Of a DNA stretch of 64,000 bases, positions 43,508-47,617 are shown piece by piece. The stretch is taken from contig OY970242.1 of the NCBI GenBank assembly GCA_963715505.1, forward strand, positions 1,551,810 through 1,615,809, written 5' to 3'. A model generated the notes under the pieces. The model saw only the letters and a list, made by a program, of their open reading frames with translations. It made no database searches and was not told the origin of the DNA. Made by a program: the position numbers and the translations under genes. Each line of letters opens with the position of its first letter. Position 1 is the stretch's first letter. The stretch comes from an uncultured Microthrixaceae bacterium. GTDB taxonomy: Bacteria > Actinomycetota > Acidimicrobiia > Acidimicrobiales > VFJN01.

Positions 43508-45193
43508 TCAGCGGCCGACCAGCCAGACGATCACAGCGCCGTCGTCGGCCAGGACGGTGAGGCCGAGTCGCTCGATGTAGGCGCGCGCCAGCGGGGCCGG
43601 CTCGCGGCGGTCGTAGGCGACGAACCCGATGCCCAGGGCCGCCAGGTCCTCCCGGTCGAAGGTGGCGGCGTCGTCGAACCCGGGCTCGCCCTGCAGCGCG
43701 AGCACCTGCCGGTAGGCCTCGGTGCCGAGCAGCTCGGCGAGCCGGTCCTCCGGGTAGCGAGAGGCGGCGCCGGACACGGTCGCCCGCTCGTGCACCGTGG
43801 CGTTGACGAGGAACAGGAAGTCCTCCCGACGACCTGGCGCGTAGCCGATGGCCCGCTGGCCGGTCGACCACTGGATCGGGATCTCGAGCACCGCCCCCGG
43901 ATCGGGGTGGTCGGCGATGGCGCGGTAGGGCGCCGGGGCGTCGGCGGGCGCCTCGGGCAGCGATCGGGGCAGCAGCTCCACGAGCACCAGCCCGAGCGCC
44001 AGGGCCGTAGCCGTGCCGGCGCAGCGGGGGTACCGGCGCAGCAGGACCGCCAGCGCCATGGCGGCGAGCACCACGAGCCCCAGCGCCCCGACCACGGCGA
44101 AGCGCCCGGGCACCCGGAACGCATCGAAGCCGGGCAGGGCGCGCACCACGAAGAAGGGCAGCGGGACCTCCACGTAGGTGTCGCGCACGTAGGGGTACGG
44201 GCCGAGCGACAGGACGATGCCGACGATCGCCATGGCCACCCAGCCGCGACGCTCGTCGCCGGTTCGCAGGCGCCGGCCGGCCAGCGCCAGCGCGATCACC
44301 ACGGCGCCCGGGTAGGCGATGCCCTCCGGCGTGAGCGCCGGGGGCTCCAGGGAGGCGAAGCGCCCGAGCCACAGCTGTTCGAGCGGCGGGACCACCCAGG
44401 ACAGCGGCGAGGCCGCGTAGACCATCGAAGCGCCGGTCGGGATCGGTTCGCCCGACTCGCCGGCGAGCATCGCCGCGGCCAGGGGCACGAGGAGCGGCGC
44501 CGCCACGACGGCGGCGAGTGCCCCTGCCGCGGCGAGCGGGCGCCAGGCGCCCGCCAGTGCTGAGCGGTGCACCACGGCGAGCGGCACGATGGCGACCAGC
44601 GCCAGGATCACGAGCTGCGGGTCGACCAGGAAGGTGCACCCAGCCGCGATGCCGAGCAGCGCGATGCGCCCTCGGTCCGGGCGATCGAGGGCGCGCAGGA
44701 ACGCCAGGACGAGGAGCGGCACGAGGCCGAGGTGCACGAGGTTCAGGTGACCGCTGGCGACGTGTGCGAAGCGGTGCGGGAGCAGCGCCCATGCCGCGCC
44801 CGCCAAGAAGGCGGCACAGCGGTCGTGCGTCACGTGGTGCGCGAGCAGGTAGGCGCCGCCGGCCGCGACGAACATCCCCGCCAGCTGCACCGCGTTGACC
44901 TGTGCCGCCGGGCCGAGCAGCGCCTGCAGCGGCCAGGTCAGCGCCGACACCAGGGGCGCCGACGTCGTCGTCGCCAGGTCGGCGCCGACGGGGTGGAACA
45001 TCTGGTCGGTCGCGTACGGGTTGTCGCCGCGCCCGAGCGCGCGCGGCATGGCCCACCAGATCCAGCGGAACACCGACCCGTCGGCCACGTCCACCATCGG
45101 CCGCGACGAGAAGTGCACCACGGCCGGCCAGAGCACGACCGCGGTCATGGCTGCGTAGGCGGCCATGGCCGGCAGGTGCCGCCGCGTGGCCAT
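43508..45193 (-). CDS. Multi-pass membrane protein, GT-C/YfhO-like
   Basis: D..VF.W..WW, MFHPVGADL, GHLNL, LSLGP, FRVPGRF, VLEIP. Confidence 0.7.
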   Translation of the reverse strand: MATRRHLPAMAAYAAMTAVVLWPAVVHFSSRPMVDVADGSVFRWIWWAMPRALGRGDNPYATDQMFHPVGADLATTTSAPLVSALTWPLQALLGPAAQVNAVQLAGMFVAAGGAYLLAHHVTHDRCAAFLAGAAWALLPHRFAHVASGHLNLVHLGLVPLLVLAFLRALDRPDRGRIALLGIAAGCTFLVDPQLVILALVAIVPLAVVHRSALAGAWRPLAAAGALAAVVAAPLLVPLAAAMLAGESGEPIPTGASMVYAASPLSWVVPPLEQLWLGRFASLEPPALTPEGIAYPGAVVIALALAGRRLRTGDERRGWVAMAIVGIVLSLGPYPYVRDTYVEVPLPFFVVRALPGFDAFRVPGRFAVVGALGLVVLAAMALAVLLRRYPRCAGTATALALGLVLVELLPRSLPEAPADAPAPYRAIADHPDPGAVLEIPIQWSTGQRAIGYAPGRREDFLFLVNATVHERATVSGAASRYPEDRLAELLGTEAYRQVLALQGEPGFDDAATFDREDLAALGIGFVAYDRREPAPLARAYIERLGLTVLADDGAVIVWLVGR

Positions 45194-45285
45194 GGTGGGC
45201 GAGGATACGGGCGGCCCACGACGGCGGGGCGGATGTCCCGGCTTGCCGCGTCGCACCAGGGGATGCTGGCTAGGATGGGCGTCAA

Positions 45286-45393
45286 CGCCGGCCCGGTGAT
45301 CCGGCGACATATCGGTTCCGGGGACGACATCCCCGCGGGAGAGGCGACCGGGCTGTCCCCGCCGTCCAGCAACCGGAACCTCCAGCGTGGAGG
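45286..45393 (+). ncRNA. Structured nadA 5' leader; candidate NAD+-I-like riboswitch
   Basis: Nested stems GGTTCCGG/CCGGAACC, GGACG/CGTCC and GCGGG/CCCGC with 8-nt bulge ACATCCCC; RBS hairpin CCTCCA/TGGAGG; -10-like TAGGAT at 45271. Confidence 0.55.
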
Positions 45394-45404
45394 GCACCCA
45401 CAAC

Positions 45405-46541
45405 ATGTTGAGGCTCCAAGACCCGCTCGACGAGCGCTACACCGCGGCGACCGCCGAGGAGCTCGAGGCCCGGATCGCCACGGCCAAGGCCACGCTCGGC
45501 GACCGCGTCTTCATCCTCGGGCACCACTACCAGCGCGACGAGGTGATCCGCTGGGCCGACGCCCGCGGCGACAGCTACCGCCTGTCGGTGCTCGCCCAGC
45601 AGCAGGAGCAGGCCGAGCACATCGTGTTCTGCGGCGTGCACTTCATGGCCGAGTCGGCCGACATCCTCACCGCGGACCACCAGAAGGTCATCCTCCCCGA
45701 CCTGAACGCCGGCTGCTCGATGGCCGACATGGCCGACATCGACGAGGTCGAGGAGGCCTGGGCCGCCATCGCCGCCGTCACCGACATCAGCCGCGTCGTG
45801 CCGATCACCTACATGAACTCCTCCGCGGCGCTGAAGGCCTTCGTGGGGCGCAACGGCGGCGCCGTGTGCACCTCCACCAACGCCCGGGCGGTGCTCGACT
45901 GGGCGCTCGGCAAGGGCGACCGGGCCGGCCGGGAGGCCCAGGGGTCGACCGGCGGCGGCGACAAGGTGCTCTTCTTCCCCGACCAGCACCTCGGCCGCAA
46001 CACCGGCCTCGCCATGGGCTACGGCCTCGACGACATGCGGGTGTGGAACCCGCGGCTCGACCAGGGCGGCCTCGAGGACCTCGACATCAAGGCGTCCACG
46101 CTGCTGCTGTGGAAGGGCCACTGCTCGGTGCACCAGCGCTTCCGCCCCGAGCACATCGAGGCATTCCGGGCAGAGCACCCCGACGGCATCGTGGTGATGC
46201 ACCCCGAGTGCAGCCACGAGGTGTGCCAGCTCGCCGACCAGGTCGGCTCCACCGACTACATCATCCGGGCGGTCGCCGAGGCACCGGCCGGCTCGGTGAT
46301 CGCGGTCGGCACCGAGATCCACCTCGTCAACCGGCTGAACGACGAGACGCCCGACAAGACGATCGTCTCCCTCGACCCGCTGGTGTGCCCCTGCTCCACG
46401 ATGTTCCGCGTCGACGCCGCCCACCTCTGCTGGGTGCTCGAGAACCTCGTCGAGGGCACCGTGGTGAACCAGATCACCGTCGATCCGGAGACCACGGAGT
46501 GGGCCAGGGTGGCGCTCGAGCGGATGATCGAGATCGTCTAG
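45405..46541 (+). CDS. nadA: Quinolinate synthase
   Basis: LGHHYQ, FCGVHFMAE, AGCSMA, YMNS, CTS.NA, PDQHLG, GHCSVH, HPEC, GST, CPC.TM. Confidence 0.96.
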   Translation: MLRLQDPLDERYTAATAEELEARIATAKATLGDRVFILGHHYQRDEVIRWADARGDSYRLSVLAQQQEQAEHIVFCGVHFMAESADILTADHQKVILPDLNAGCSMADMADIDEVEEAWAAIAAVTDISRVVPITYMNSSAALKAFVGRNGGAVCTSTNARAVLDWALGKGDRAGREAQGSTGGGDKVLFFPDQHLGRNTGLAMGYGLDDMRVWNPRLDQGGLEDLDIKASTLLLWKGHCSVHQRFRPEHIEAFRAEHPDGIVVMHPECSHEVCQLADQVGSTDYIIRAVAEAPAGSVIAVGTEIHLVNRLNDETPDKTIVSLDPLVCPCSTMFRVDAAHLCWVLENLVEGTVVNQITVDPETTEWARVALERMIEIV

Positions 46542-47617
46542 TGACCTGAGTCGTTGATTCGCTGGCAGTAGGCGGCGAGGTTGTCGAGGATTTCGTCGGC
46601 GGTCTTGTGCCAGACGAACGGCTTGGGGTCGTCGTTCCAGTTGGTGATCCAGGTGCGGATCGACGCGACGAGGTCTTTGACCGAGCGGTGAGCGCTGCGC
46701 TTGAGCCACTTGGTCGTCAGCTCGGCGAACCACCGCTCGACCAGGTTCAGCCAGCTCGAGTAGGTCGGCGTGAAGTGCAGCGTGAAGCGGGGATGGCGCA
46801 CGAGCCATCTCTGGATCGAGGGTGTCTTGTGCGTCGAGCTGTTGTCGACGACGACATGCACGTCGAGGTGCTCGGGGACGTTGCGGTCGATGAGGTTCAA
46901 GAACCGACGGAACTCCTCGGCGCGGTGCCTGGGCGTCAGATCCGCGATCACCTGGCCGGACGCGACATCGAGCGCCGCGTAGAGGTTCGTGGTCCCGTTG
47001 CGCTTGTAGTCGTGTGTCTGGCGGGCCGGCGTGCCTGGCAACAGCGGCAGGATCGGCGCTGACCGGTCGAGCGCTTGGACCTGGGTCTTCTCATCCACGC
47101 AGAGCACGACCGCCGACTCGGGCGGGTTCAGATAGAGCCCGACCACGTCGCGGACCTTGTCGATGAACTGCGGGTCCGGTGACAGCTTGAAGTCCTCGAC
47201 CCGGTGCGGCTTCAGACCAAAGGCCCGCCAGATCTTCGAGACCGCCGTCTGCGACATCCCTGTCGCCGCCGCCATCGACCGCGTCGACCAGTGCGTCGCG
47301 TTGACGGGCGTCTCCTCGAGCGTCTTGACGATCACCCGCTCCACATCGTCATCGCTGATCGTCCGCGGCTTTCCCGGACGAGGCTCGTCGTGCAGGCCAT
47401 CGATGCCCTTGGCCGCGAAGCGCACCCGCCACCTCCCCACCGTCGACGGCGTGCACCCCAAACGGGCCGCGATGTCGGTGCTCGACTCCCCGTCAGCGGC
47501 CCCCAAGATGATCCGGCACCGCAACGCCAGCGCCTGCGCGCTGTTCCGTCGCCGAGCCCACCGCTCCAGCGTCTCCCGTTCCTCGTCGGTGAGCGTGATC
47601 GTCGTCCGTTGCGCCAT
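46538..47617 (-). CDS. IS630 family transposase
   Basis: THWSTR, VDEK, YKRNGT, DN.STHK, PTYSSWLNLVERWF. Confidence 0.95.
   Translation of the reverse strand: MAQRTTITLTDEERETLERWARRRNSAQALALRCRIILGAADGESSTDIAARLGCTPSTVGRWRVRFAAKGIDGLHDEPRPGKPRTISDDDVERVIVKTLEETPVNATHWSTRSMAAATGMSQTAVSKIWRAFGLKPHRVEDFKLSPDPQFIDKVRDVVGLYLNPPESAVVLCVDEKTQVQALDRSAPILPLLPGTPARQTHDYKRNGTTNLYAALDVASGQVIADLTPRHRAEEFRRFLNLIDRNVPEHLDVHVVVDNSSTHKTPSIQRWLVRHPRFTLHFTPTYSSWLNLVERWFAELTTKWLKRSAHRSVKDLVASIRTWITNWNDDPKPFVWHKTADEILDNLAAYCQRINDSGH

Follow-up and report, generated by a model that had tools for sequence, protein, structure and literature searches.

A conserved RNA of 95 bases, placed by prediction at the start of the nadA transcript, lies in the DNA analysed here, a stretch of 64,000 nucleotides from an uncultured Microthrixaceae bacterium (the window; all coordinates are window positions on the + strand). 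The RNA occupies positions 45286-45380 and precedes the gene for quinolinate synthase (nadA, 378 aa, 45405..46541, ATG at 45405; Pfam PF02445 NadA, E 1.7e-91), whose product carries out the first committed reaction in making NAD+ de novo. The RNA is a conserved feature of the class Acidimicrobiia (Actinomycetota; soil and water actinobacteria). Its structure covaries, unpaired nucleotides within it are conserved, and it lies on the sense strand in the leader of a metabolic gene, which fits the general description of a riboswitch aptamer. One of its junctions is built like the ligand pocket of domain 1 of the NAD+-I riboswitch (the nadA motif), and we therefore infer from this likeness that the RNA senses NAD+ or a related ADP-bearing metabolite. 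The reading that we favour, with moderate confidence, is that 45286-45380 is a riboswitch-type aptamer with the NAD+-I domain 1 pocket, acting as an OFF switch on nadA.

From 5' to 3', the RNA begins with a hairpin P0 (45286..45306), in which CGCCGG (45286-91) pairs with CCGGCG (45301-06) around the 9-nt loop CCCGGTGAT (45292-45300). The start of this loop, CCCGG (45292..45296), is the 5' half of a loop-loop (kissing) pairing with 45348-52. The hairpin is followed by a single-stranded joiner J0/1 (ACATATC, consensus ACAUAUC, 45307..45313), whose sequence is conserved across alignments A3, A4 and A5, and then by the outer helix P1, whose 5' strand GGTTCCGG (45314..45321) pairs with CCGGAACC (45373-80). 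Helix P2 is formed by GGACG (45322..45326) and CGTCC (45363-67), with C45325:G45364 as the penultimate pair before a one-sided 8-nt bulge, ACATCCCC (45327..45334), for which the family consensus is ACANCCCC (exact in 73/76 rows of A3). Beyond the bulge, the distal hairpin P3 (45335..45362) consists of GCGGG (45335-39) paired with CCCGC (45358-62), a 5' bulge AGA (45340-42), GGCG (45343-46) paired with TGTC (45354-57), and a 7-nt loop ACCGGGC (45347-53), in which positions 45348-52 form the 3' side of the kissing pairing. P3 has 9 pairs in total, interrupted by a 5' bulge of 1-3 nt as read by eye from the alignments. The 3' strands of P2 and P1 (45363..45380), both supported by pair covariation, are parted by an A-rich 3' bulge, AGCAA (45368-72), which is variable and 3-7 nt long in the alignments.

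A preliminary description of this leader, made from its letters and open reading frames, had named the box TAGGAT (45271-76), the outer stem P1, the two stems GGACG/CGTCC and GCGGG/CCCGC with the one-sided bulge between them, and a pairing of CCTCCA (45379-84) with TGGAGG (45388-93), and all of these elements were found at the coordinates given; hairpin P0 and its loop-loop pairing with the terminal loop were absent from it. The minimum-energy fold of this single sequence includes the helices so named, with an energy no better than that of shuffled sequence (z 0.15; 109/200 shuffles at least as stable). The window by itself therefore proves nothing, and the proof is comparative.

In 75 distinct homologous leaders, 98.2% of 2295 cells are paired and compensatory (double) changes occur in 21/31 pairs, a level that 0/500 shuffles reached, while slid controls were 21.6-52.1% paired. 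The earlier proposal of a conserved cis-acting RNA before nadA in an actinobacterial lineage is borne out by these leaders, in which all three of the stems first noted covary: both sides change in 8/8 pairs of P1, and covariation is seen in 4/5 pairs of the GGACG stem (P2) and in 3/4 pairs of the GCGGG stem (lower P3). In P0, both partners have changed in 4/5 pairs, and paired cells make up 99.7%; a sixth P0 pair (alignment columns 1 and 30), with 88% standard pairs (CG 34, GC 13, UG 11, UA 3), was added from a mutual-information scan. The GGCG/UGYC segment of P3 is nearly invariant (GC 74; GU 64 and GC 10; CG 75; GU 74). The kissing pairing joins the consensus CCNGG in the P0 loop to CCN'GG in the terminal loop, and 100% of its cells are paired. 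Its centre pair occurs in all four Watson-Crick types (UA 49, CG 19, GC 6, AU 1), an outer pair is CG in 73 and UA in 2 sequences, and the complementarity is present in 76/76 copies of a second set. This pairing was absent from the model used for aligning the sequences. In the mutual-information scan neither the joiner nor the bulge gained a pairing or tertiary partner; the sixth P0 pair alone emerged, the other high values being attributed to shared ancestry.

The distribution of the RNA was determined with a covariance model built from relatives (R1) and a more diverse model (R2). Exactly one full-length R1 match was present in each of 88/151 genomes sampled from the order (68/118 among the high-quality genomes of that sample), and one each in 42/151 genomes sampled from the class, 30 of the 42 belonging to other orders. 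In the phylum sample, matches to R1 and R2 were confined to 4 genomes of the class, with 0/140 in genomes of other classes; the 8 best R2 matches outside the class score at most 30.7 bits, none lies near nadA, and they were dismissed as chance. The gene nadA stands directly downstream in 76/76 aligned copies (A3) and in 78/78 copies (A4), and the distance from the end of the motif to the nadA start is 16-51 nt in 76/76 copies and 16-63 nt in the second sets, with about 22 nt between motif end and start codon as the general figure. By coordinate comparison, 87/88 of the order matches adjoin nadA, and the remaining match is 186 nt short of the end of its contig. The gene itself was found in 102/151 genomes of the order sample, and in 9 or 10 genomes of the order its 5' region is intact and the motif is absent. 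Two of the 80 loci from a contig pattern scan, L097 (labelled Micromonospora) and L165, were discarded as chance matches inside coding sequence. The fold energy of the single sequence would suit GC-rich inverted repeats that arose by chance and have no function; one full-length copy per genome in so many genomes, its position before nadA and its compensatory pairs refute that explanation, and we give it a negligible chance.

The bulge is the most conserved single-stranded part of the RNA. It matches the solved ligand pocket at 7/7 fixed positions, its fourth position being free to vary (T, A or C), and the flanking pairs match too: the penultimate C:G pair before the bulge (alignment columns 54 and 94; C45325:G45364 in the window) is CG in 75/75 leaders, and the first pair after the bulge is G-C in 75/75. 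According to the structural study of NAD+-I (PMC7297122), the penultimate C:G pair of domain 1 is the adenosine contact, and the NAD+-I bulge has the same consensus with its free position flipped out in the crystal structure. The bulged module thus corresponds, in the ACANCCCC bulge, the same free fourth position and the flanking pairs, to the NAD+-I ligand-binding core, as had been suggested for the window. The Rfam nadA model likewise places its ACAUCCCCG exactly on 45327-35. Among 20 low-scoring divergent copies, 14 have exactly ACANCCCC; in three divergent copies the first base of the bulge is C and not A, and one has CCAUAUCC. One genome (G124) keeps the entire RNA without the bulge.

Domain 1 of NAD+-I (nadA motif, RF03013; Acidobacteria), as set out in two papers (PMC6859854, PMC7297122), shares with the present RNA its occurrence upstream of nadA only, the one-sided 8-nt bulge ACANCCCC where two coaxial helices meet on the 5' strand, the C:G pair in the penultimate position ahead of it, the G-C pair that opens the next helix, the ribosome-binding site just 3' of the aptamer and, as a prediction in both cases, the OFF logic. 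The two differ in that NAD+-I has two tandem bulged domains, the second of which carries the ribosome-binding site, whereas the Acidimicrobiia leaders have one ACANCCCC domain each and, upstream of it, the plain hairpin P0. In NAD+-I the bulge is followed by a helix of strictly 7 bp and then by a GYG loop in the 3' strand, whose G36 and G38 pair with two bulge cytosines; in the present RNA the helix has 9 bp with a 5' bulge of 1-3 nt, there is no GYG in the 3' strand, and the contacts of G36 and G38 have no evident counterpart. It is speculation that the invariant G-C-G of the 5' strand, opposite U-G-Y, could be an analogue of the GYG loop. The kissing of P0 with the terminal loop, the ACAUAUC joiner and the outer helix P1 beyond the 3' bulge are extras of the present RNA, and the hosts are different, Acidobacteria for NAD+-I and Acidimicrobiia (Actinomycetota) here.

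The Rfam nadA model, named in the preliminary description as a check, does not recognise the motif, which reaches 15.4 bits where the gathering score is 37.5, with E 1.9 genome-wide, and ranks second in its own genome (G000), where another site scores better. None of the 151 genomes of the order has a match to the nadA model over the cut-off, and for 20 further leaders searched together no match was listed at E<=10. Weak matches to the model (15.4-18.2 bits) do coincide with the R1 site in at least 7/88 genomes, among the matches listed, and this overlap is far above chance placement in genomes of 2-4 Mb. At Rfam gathering thresholds the whole window contains only a tRNA; weak matches to mir-132, c-di-GMP-II-GCG and Guanidine-II obtained in E-value mode were set aside as noise.

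An ordinary diverged member of the existing NAD+-I family would have the same gene, the same bulge and the same flanking pairs, as the present RNA does. Neither the tandem second domain, nor the 7-bp helix with the GYG loop, nor a score at the Rfam gathering threshold is found, however, and P0 and the loop-loop pairing, conserved here, are lacking in NAD+-I; a 2023 paper also states that single-domain nadA riboswitches were unknown (PMC10702441). We regard plain membership in that family as highly improbable. Of the NAD+-I-like, single-aptamer reading first given to the window, the matching bulged core stands, but the RNA is not simply one NAD+-I aptamer. The architecture is uncatalogued, a variant of the NAD+-I kind, and no published description of this nadA-leader RNA was found in the literature covered, the main texts of articles in open journals.

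Two other RNAs bear on the comparison. The ubiB motif (Malkowski et al. 2019; PMC6859854) is reported as a variant of nadA domain 1, represented nine times in Nocardia, and it resembles the present RNA (PMC6859854, PMC7297122) in being an actinobacterial, domain-1-like ADP module joined to an additional element other than a bulged domain. It is set apart, by its textual description, in that it keeps the 8-nt bulge, 7 bp and internal loop, followed by a plain 11-bp stem-loop, and it precedes ubiB/aarF and not nadA. The NAD+-II riboswitch (pnuC motif; Streptococcus), as described (PMC8632094), is also NAD+-related, uses a pseudoknot and controls translation; it is different in that its sequence and fold are unrelated, it binds the nicotinamide side and it precedes pnuC. 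Rfam gave no match to NAD+-II in the window.

Under the mechanism that we propose, the P2-bulge-P3 junction would form the same adenosine-diphosphate pocket as NAD+-I domain 1, with the penultimate C:G pair as the seat of the adenosine and Mg2+ holding the phosphates at the neck of the bulge, as in NAD+-I. The kissing contact would bend P0, together with the conserved joiner, back against the helical stack, and may take the place of the NAD+-I tertiary brace (the GYG loop) and perhaps also of the second domain. Bound ligand would lock P2 and P1, and the pyrimidine tract at the 3' end of P1 would then be available for pairing with the Shine-Dalgarno sequence, which lies 8-12 nt downstream, the compact aptamer presumably sitting about 22 nt from the start codon, so that plentiful NAD+ would lower nadA translation. 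Likeness to a binding pocket is, as a caution, not binding. Since ATP and ADP are bound about equally well by the published NAD+-I aptamer (PMC10702441), even a true ADP pocket would leave the physiological ligand unfixed. The junction ACANCCCC might bind ATP/ADP as an energy signal, NaAD or ADP-ribose, or P0 and the joiner might specify an intermediate, e.g., NaMN or quinolinate. Such a riboswitch for another ligand would agree with the reports that isolated NAD+-I domain 1 sees the ADP moiety only and does not discriminate against ATP (PMC7297122, PMC10702441), and the different periphery (P0, kissing loop and ACAUAUC joiner) could form a second sub-pocket. For an RNA associated exclusively with nadA, though, the end product is the best-fitting ligand, and nothing in the data favours any particular alternative; we hold another ligand to be unlikely, with an appreciable chance, and the ligand to be probably NAD+ or an ADP-bearing relative.

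The putative expression platform (45379..45393) consists of CCTCCA (45379-84), a loop GCG and TGGAGG (45388-93), which holds GGAGG; the pyrimidine tract CCTCCA overlaps the last 2 nt of P1. Most of 76 tails have a C/U-rich tract right after P1 together with a G-rich Shine-Dalgarno sequence, and the predicted fold pairs at least 4/5 Shine-Dalgarno bases in 48/74 tails. The hiding of the Shine-Dalgarno sequence, as first described for the window, is plausible, but the pairing is no greater than in a composition control with shuffled upstream sequence (3.7 vs 3.6 bases; mean z -0.4). An alternative pairing GGGGAC/GTCCCC, which had been thought to disrupt the bulged module, is not conserved: of its six pairs, one is unpaired in 41 and another in 51 of 75 sequences. 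The leaders yielded no conserved alternative (ON-state) structure. A structured leader that senses nothing, serving as a protein-binding site or in mRNA stability or constitutive translational tuning, with a coincidental likeness of the bulge, would be consistent with the missing ON-state fold, with Shine-Dalgarno pairing within the expectation from composition and with the one genome in which the fold persists without its bulge. Against it stand the bulge itself, both as the best conserved unpaired part and as a counterpart of the solved pocket down to its flanking pairs, and the tertiary fold by kissing loops and the specificity for a single gene, both typical of riboswitch aptamers. On balance a leader of that sort appears distinctly unlikely, and an aptamer for NAD+ or an ADP-bearing relative is the preferred reading.

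To our knowledge, only two classes of NAD+ riboswitches have been described, both narrowly distributed, and we know of no demonstration that the tandem NAD+-I reads the nicotinamide side. NAD+-I is puzzling in that only its domain 1 binds anything, reads the ADP half alone and does not reject ATP. The Acidimicrobiia RNA would be a single-domain form from nature that bears this pocket signature and is braced by a different, well-defined tertiary contact. In the sample from its order, a large and mostly uncultured group of actinobacteria, over half of the genomes have it. The RNA offers an experimental handle on two questions, i.e., which surroundings the conserved bulge needs and whether this bulge could serve as the basis of a full NAD+ sensor. 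The RNA is also a new family for genome annotation, which marks nadA as putatively RNA-regulated in Acidimicrobiia. Tentatively, and with more doubt than belief, we suggest that the RNA may represent a third NAD+-sensing architecture, a single ADP-pocket module related to NAD+-I by descent or convergence and clamped by a 5' kissing hairpin that brings the ACAUAUC joiner beside the bulge; one domain might then read the whole dinucleotide, including the nicotinamide side, and de novo NAD+ synthesis in Acidimicrobiia might be controlled mainly by this RNA.

A -10-like hexamer, TAGGAT (45271..45276), precedes the RNA, and in 76/76 aligned leaders a TANNNT box lies upstream of the motif, ending 5-11 nt before it; the transcript start is predicted at ~45283-45285, just before P0. 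A scan with sigma-70 and terminator consensus sequences gave no full promoter and no terminator. Contigs from four RNA-labelled libraries cover the leaders of relatives, and one of them extends >250 nt upstream of the predicted start; these libraries are therefore uninformative on transcription start or expression. Among public runs, the stretch is present only in small shares (about 0.15), in soil and compost libraries.

The nadA leader occupies window positions 45286-45380 on the forward strand, and on re-reading the window sequence every sequence element of the preliminary description was found in its place. A -10-like box, TAGGAT (45271-76), precedes a 5' hairpin, P0 (45286-91 paired with 45301-06, 9-nt loop), which is followed by a conserved joiner, ACAUAUC (45307-13), and the outer stem P1, in which GGTTCCGG (45314-21) pairs with CCGGAACC (45373-80). 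P1 encloses P2 (GGACG, 45322-26, with CGTCC, 45363-67), the one-sided bulge ACATCCCC (45327-34), and the distal hairpin P3, which is made up of a lower helix (GCGGG, 45335-39, with CCCGC, 45358-62), a 5' bulge AGA, an upper helix (GGCG, 45343-46, with UGUC, 45354-57) and a terminal loop ACCGGGC (45347-53); a variable A-rich 3' bulge (45368-72) lies between P2 and P1. CCTCCA (45379-84) is able to pair with TGGAGG (45388-93), and nadA, which starts with the ATG at 45405, encodes quinolinate synthase of 378 aa (E 1.7e-91 to Pfam NadA). The helices named in the preliminary description are present in the minimum-energy fold of 45280-45420, the stability of which is not above that of shuffled sequence (z 0.15; 109 of 200 shuffles as stable). 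Given GC-rich DNA and an unremarkable fold energy, the single window proves nothing.

Within the genus, 19 other genomes carry the 131-base leader at 82-97% identity, and four other families share its first 70-120 bases at 77-86%. A covariance model, R1 (95 positions, 28 pairs), was built from an alignment of 22 leaders. In the order sample it matched 88 of 151 genomes, exactly one full-length match in each (68/118 high-quality genomes, 69/122 genera); in the class sample 42 of 151 genomes had a match, 30 of them from other orders; and in the phylum sample there were four of 151, all in the same class, with none among the 140 genomes outside it. A second model, R2, from 84 diverse copies, found the same four genomes; its eight best outside-class matches scored at most 30.7 bits and none lay near nadA. 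The order counts for R1, nadA and the Rfam nadA model take in genomes flagged as unpublished (G066 and G089, plus G167 for the Rfam model), and one row (L051) of the alignment A3 described below comes from G066; no claim hangs on such genomes alone. An exact-pattern scan over one genome per species matched at least 120 stretches, of which 80 loci were fetched: 78 were full motif copies, two of these clipped by a contig end, and the remaining two were chance matches in coding sequence. The labels among the scan matches listed are almost all Acidimicrobiia, Acidimicrobiales, Acidimicrobiaceae, Microthrixaceae, Iamiaceae or Candidatus Poriferisocius, which identifies the host class as Acidimicrobiia. 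Four true copies (L116, L135, L142, L144) sit on MAG contigs titled Burkholderiales, Nocardioides or Bifidobacteriaceae, probably through binning or labelling errors and not transfer.

Pairing was counted over six helices in the 75 distinct sequences of A3, an alignment of 76 copies in which many rows are close kin and which was fitted to the nested helices: standard pairs fill 98.2% of 2295 cells and both-sided changes occur at 21 of 31 pairs. None of 500 shuffles reached any of five measures, and sliding the partner by 1-3 columns reduced pairing to 21.6-52.1%. The stems of the preliminary description are thus conserved and covarying among homologous nadA leaders, with both-sided changes at 8/8 pairs of P1, 4/5 of P2 (GGACG) and 3/4 of lower P3 (GCGG); P0 has them at 4/5 pairs, and upper P3 (GGCG/UGYC) is almost invariant. 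The sixth helix is a kissing interaction between five P0-loop bases (45292-96; CCNGG in the family) and five bases of the 7-nt P3 terminal loop (45348-52; A-CCN'GG-C). All of its cells are paired, with the centre pair U-A in 49 sequences, C-G in 19, G-C in 6 and A-U in 1, and an outer pair C-G in 73 and U-A in 2. Because the kissing helix is absent from the alignment model, it is free of alignment-fitting bias; the loops are also complementary in 76/76 copies that include P0 in the independent pattern-derived set, and the pairing is kept in divergent copies apart from L231, where it is unclear. By mutual information P0 gains a sixth pair; the scan detected no further tertiary pair. A TANNNT hexamer ends 5-11 nt ahead of the motif in 76/76 copies, and from this placement we infer that the RNA probably begins at P0.

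The gene downstream is constant. nadA lies on the same strand and starts 16-51 nt (mostly about 22) 3' of the motif in 76/76 aligned copies, and it is likewise downstream in 78/78 copies of the pattern-derived set. nadA was found in 102 of 151 order-sample genomes; by hand comparison of coordinates 87 of the 88 motif copies adjoin it, and the 88th (G067) is 186 nt from a contig end. In 15 order-sample genomes nadA had no R1 match, the gene being clipped by a contig end in about five. Unfiltered motif search of the ten available upstream regions of this kind returned nothing in nine, all within the order (L210-L214, L216-L219); in at least two of the nine (L211, L219) the end of another ORF lies 16-45 nt upstream of nadA, which indicates a different gene context there. 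The tenth, from the low-GC genome G098 (L215, G098:C48:122090-122440, minus strand, 52-140), holds a weak divergent copy of 21.7 bits with CCAUAUCC in place of the bulge and the kissing pair UCUGG/CCAGA; the NadA of this genome shares only 58% identity with that of the window. The RNA thus has a defined fold, a location in the 5' end region of the mRNA and an exclusive link to nadA, and its reality as a conserved, structured leader of nadA is all but certain.

The preliminary description read the leader as a variant of the NAD+-I riboswitch (Rfam RF03013). Rfam at gathering thresholds gave only a tRNA in the whole window. In E-value mode on 351 bases RF03013 scored 15.4 bits (E 0.9) at 45320-45367, short of its gathering score of 37.5, ACAUCCCCG being matched letter for letter and the remainder fitting poorly. 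It reached its cut-off in none of the 151 order genomes, ranked the leader second in the window's own genome (E 1.9), and was not listed at E<=10 in a joint search of 20 further leaders; the catalogued model therefore fails to recognise this RNA. Among the matches listed, however, at least seven genomes (G000, G037, G048, G065, G080, G099 and G103, by comparison with R1 positions) have a weak RF03013 match (15.4-18.2 bits) placed precisely at the leader; with a target of 95 bases and genomes of 2-4 Mb, chance does not account for this.

According to Huang, Wang and Lilley 2020 (PMC7297122), Malkowski et al. 2019 (PMC6859854) and a 2023 Biochemistry paper (PMC10702441), NAD+-I domain 1 consists of P1, an 8-nt ACANCCCC bulge, P1a of exactly 7 bp, an internal loop carrying GYG on its 3' strand, both G paired with two bulge C, and P1b, with the adenosine on the penultimate C:G of P1; 101/101 representatives are tandem, the second bulged domain carrying the ribosome-binding site, and all are from Acidobacteria and precede nadA. 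No single-domain nadA riboswitch is known according to the last paper. The present motif shares the bulge consensus with the same free fourth position (73/76 in A3, 14/20 divergent copies), the penultimate C:G before the bulge (75/75), the G-C pair opening the helix after it (75/75) and the gene. It differs in having neither the 7-bp helix with GYG loop nor a second domain, and in its RF03013 score, and it adds P0 with the kissing loop, the conserved joiner and an outer helix beyond a 3' bulge. The likeness thus holds for the pocket signature and the gene, and in view of the differing and extra features we read the RNA as a variant built on the same pocket and do not file it under RF03013. Within Actinomycetota the closest precedent for this module, compared by text description, is the ubiB variant in Nocardia (PMC7297122, PMC6859854). 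Rfam 15 has no family for this RNA, and no description of it was found in the openly available main texts searched, the two discovery papers included. An NAD+-I-type pocket signature in a different architecture without an Rfam family is of clear interest to the riboswitch field.

We consider it rather probable that the leader acts as a riboswitch whose ligand is NAD+ or an ADP-bearing relative. The P2-bulge-P3 junction would bind the ADP part of NAD+, as NAD+-I does. By simple helix arithmetic (9 bp in P3 compared with 6 bp in P0 and 5 bp in the kiss), the kissing loop would fold P0 back along P3, bringing the P0 3' end and joiner near the bulge, and may stand in for the GYG brace. A speculative docking site is the invariant 5'-strand G-C-G that faces U-G-Y, where G·U pairs occur in 64 and 74 sequences. 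Downstream, a pyrimidine tract starts at the last P1 bases ahead of a G-rich Shine-Dalgarno. The proposed hiding of the latter by CCTCCA/TGGAGG stands as a feasible pairing, and the fold pairs at least 4/5 Shine-Dalgarno bases in 48/74 tails, but a shuffled upstream tail does equally well; the alternative helix suggested to disrupt the bulged module is not conserved. We favour a translational OFF switch, given that nadA encodes a biosynthetic enzyme and that NAD+-I offers an analogy; the switching step is itself a proposal.

Several natural variants were seen. In G124 (L239, G124:C1:2570368-2570618, minus strand) the 8-nt bulge is absent and two unpaired bases are left, with P0, complementary kissing loops and all helices kept; this may be a natural pocket-less form. 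CCAUCCCC occurs at the bulge in two copies. L106 and L132, labelled uncultured Actinomycetes, carry an insertion of about 35 nt after the P0 loop region and a shortened outer helix (33-38 bits). G017 has a second leader copy (L220, G017:C4:1688300-1693400, minus strand, 2073-2168; 97% identity across 99 bases), which sits 2.7 kb further downstream than the first. In this copy P0 and the kissing loop are mutated, and it runs straight into the final third of a duplicated nadA (query residues 259-378, identity 71%); the arrangement resembles what a rearrangement would leave behind.

In the window, nadA faces a convergent ORF (46538-47617, minus strand) for a DDE_3/HTH transposase, IS630-like by Pfam (E 4.9e-25), with a 4-base overlap at the nadA stop codon; nadA is accordingly monocistronic here and followed immediately by a mobile element. 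On the other side, nadA shares a 214-base intergenic region with a divergent gene (43508-45190, minus strand) for a large membrane protein that has a weak PMT_2 glycosyltransferase match (E 3.3e-4, under the Pfam cut-off).
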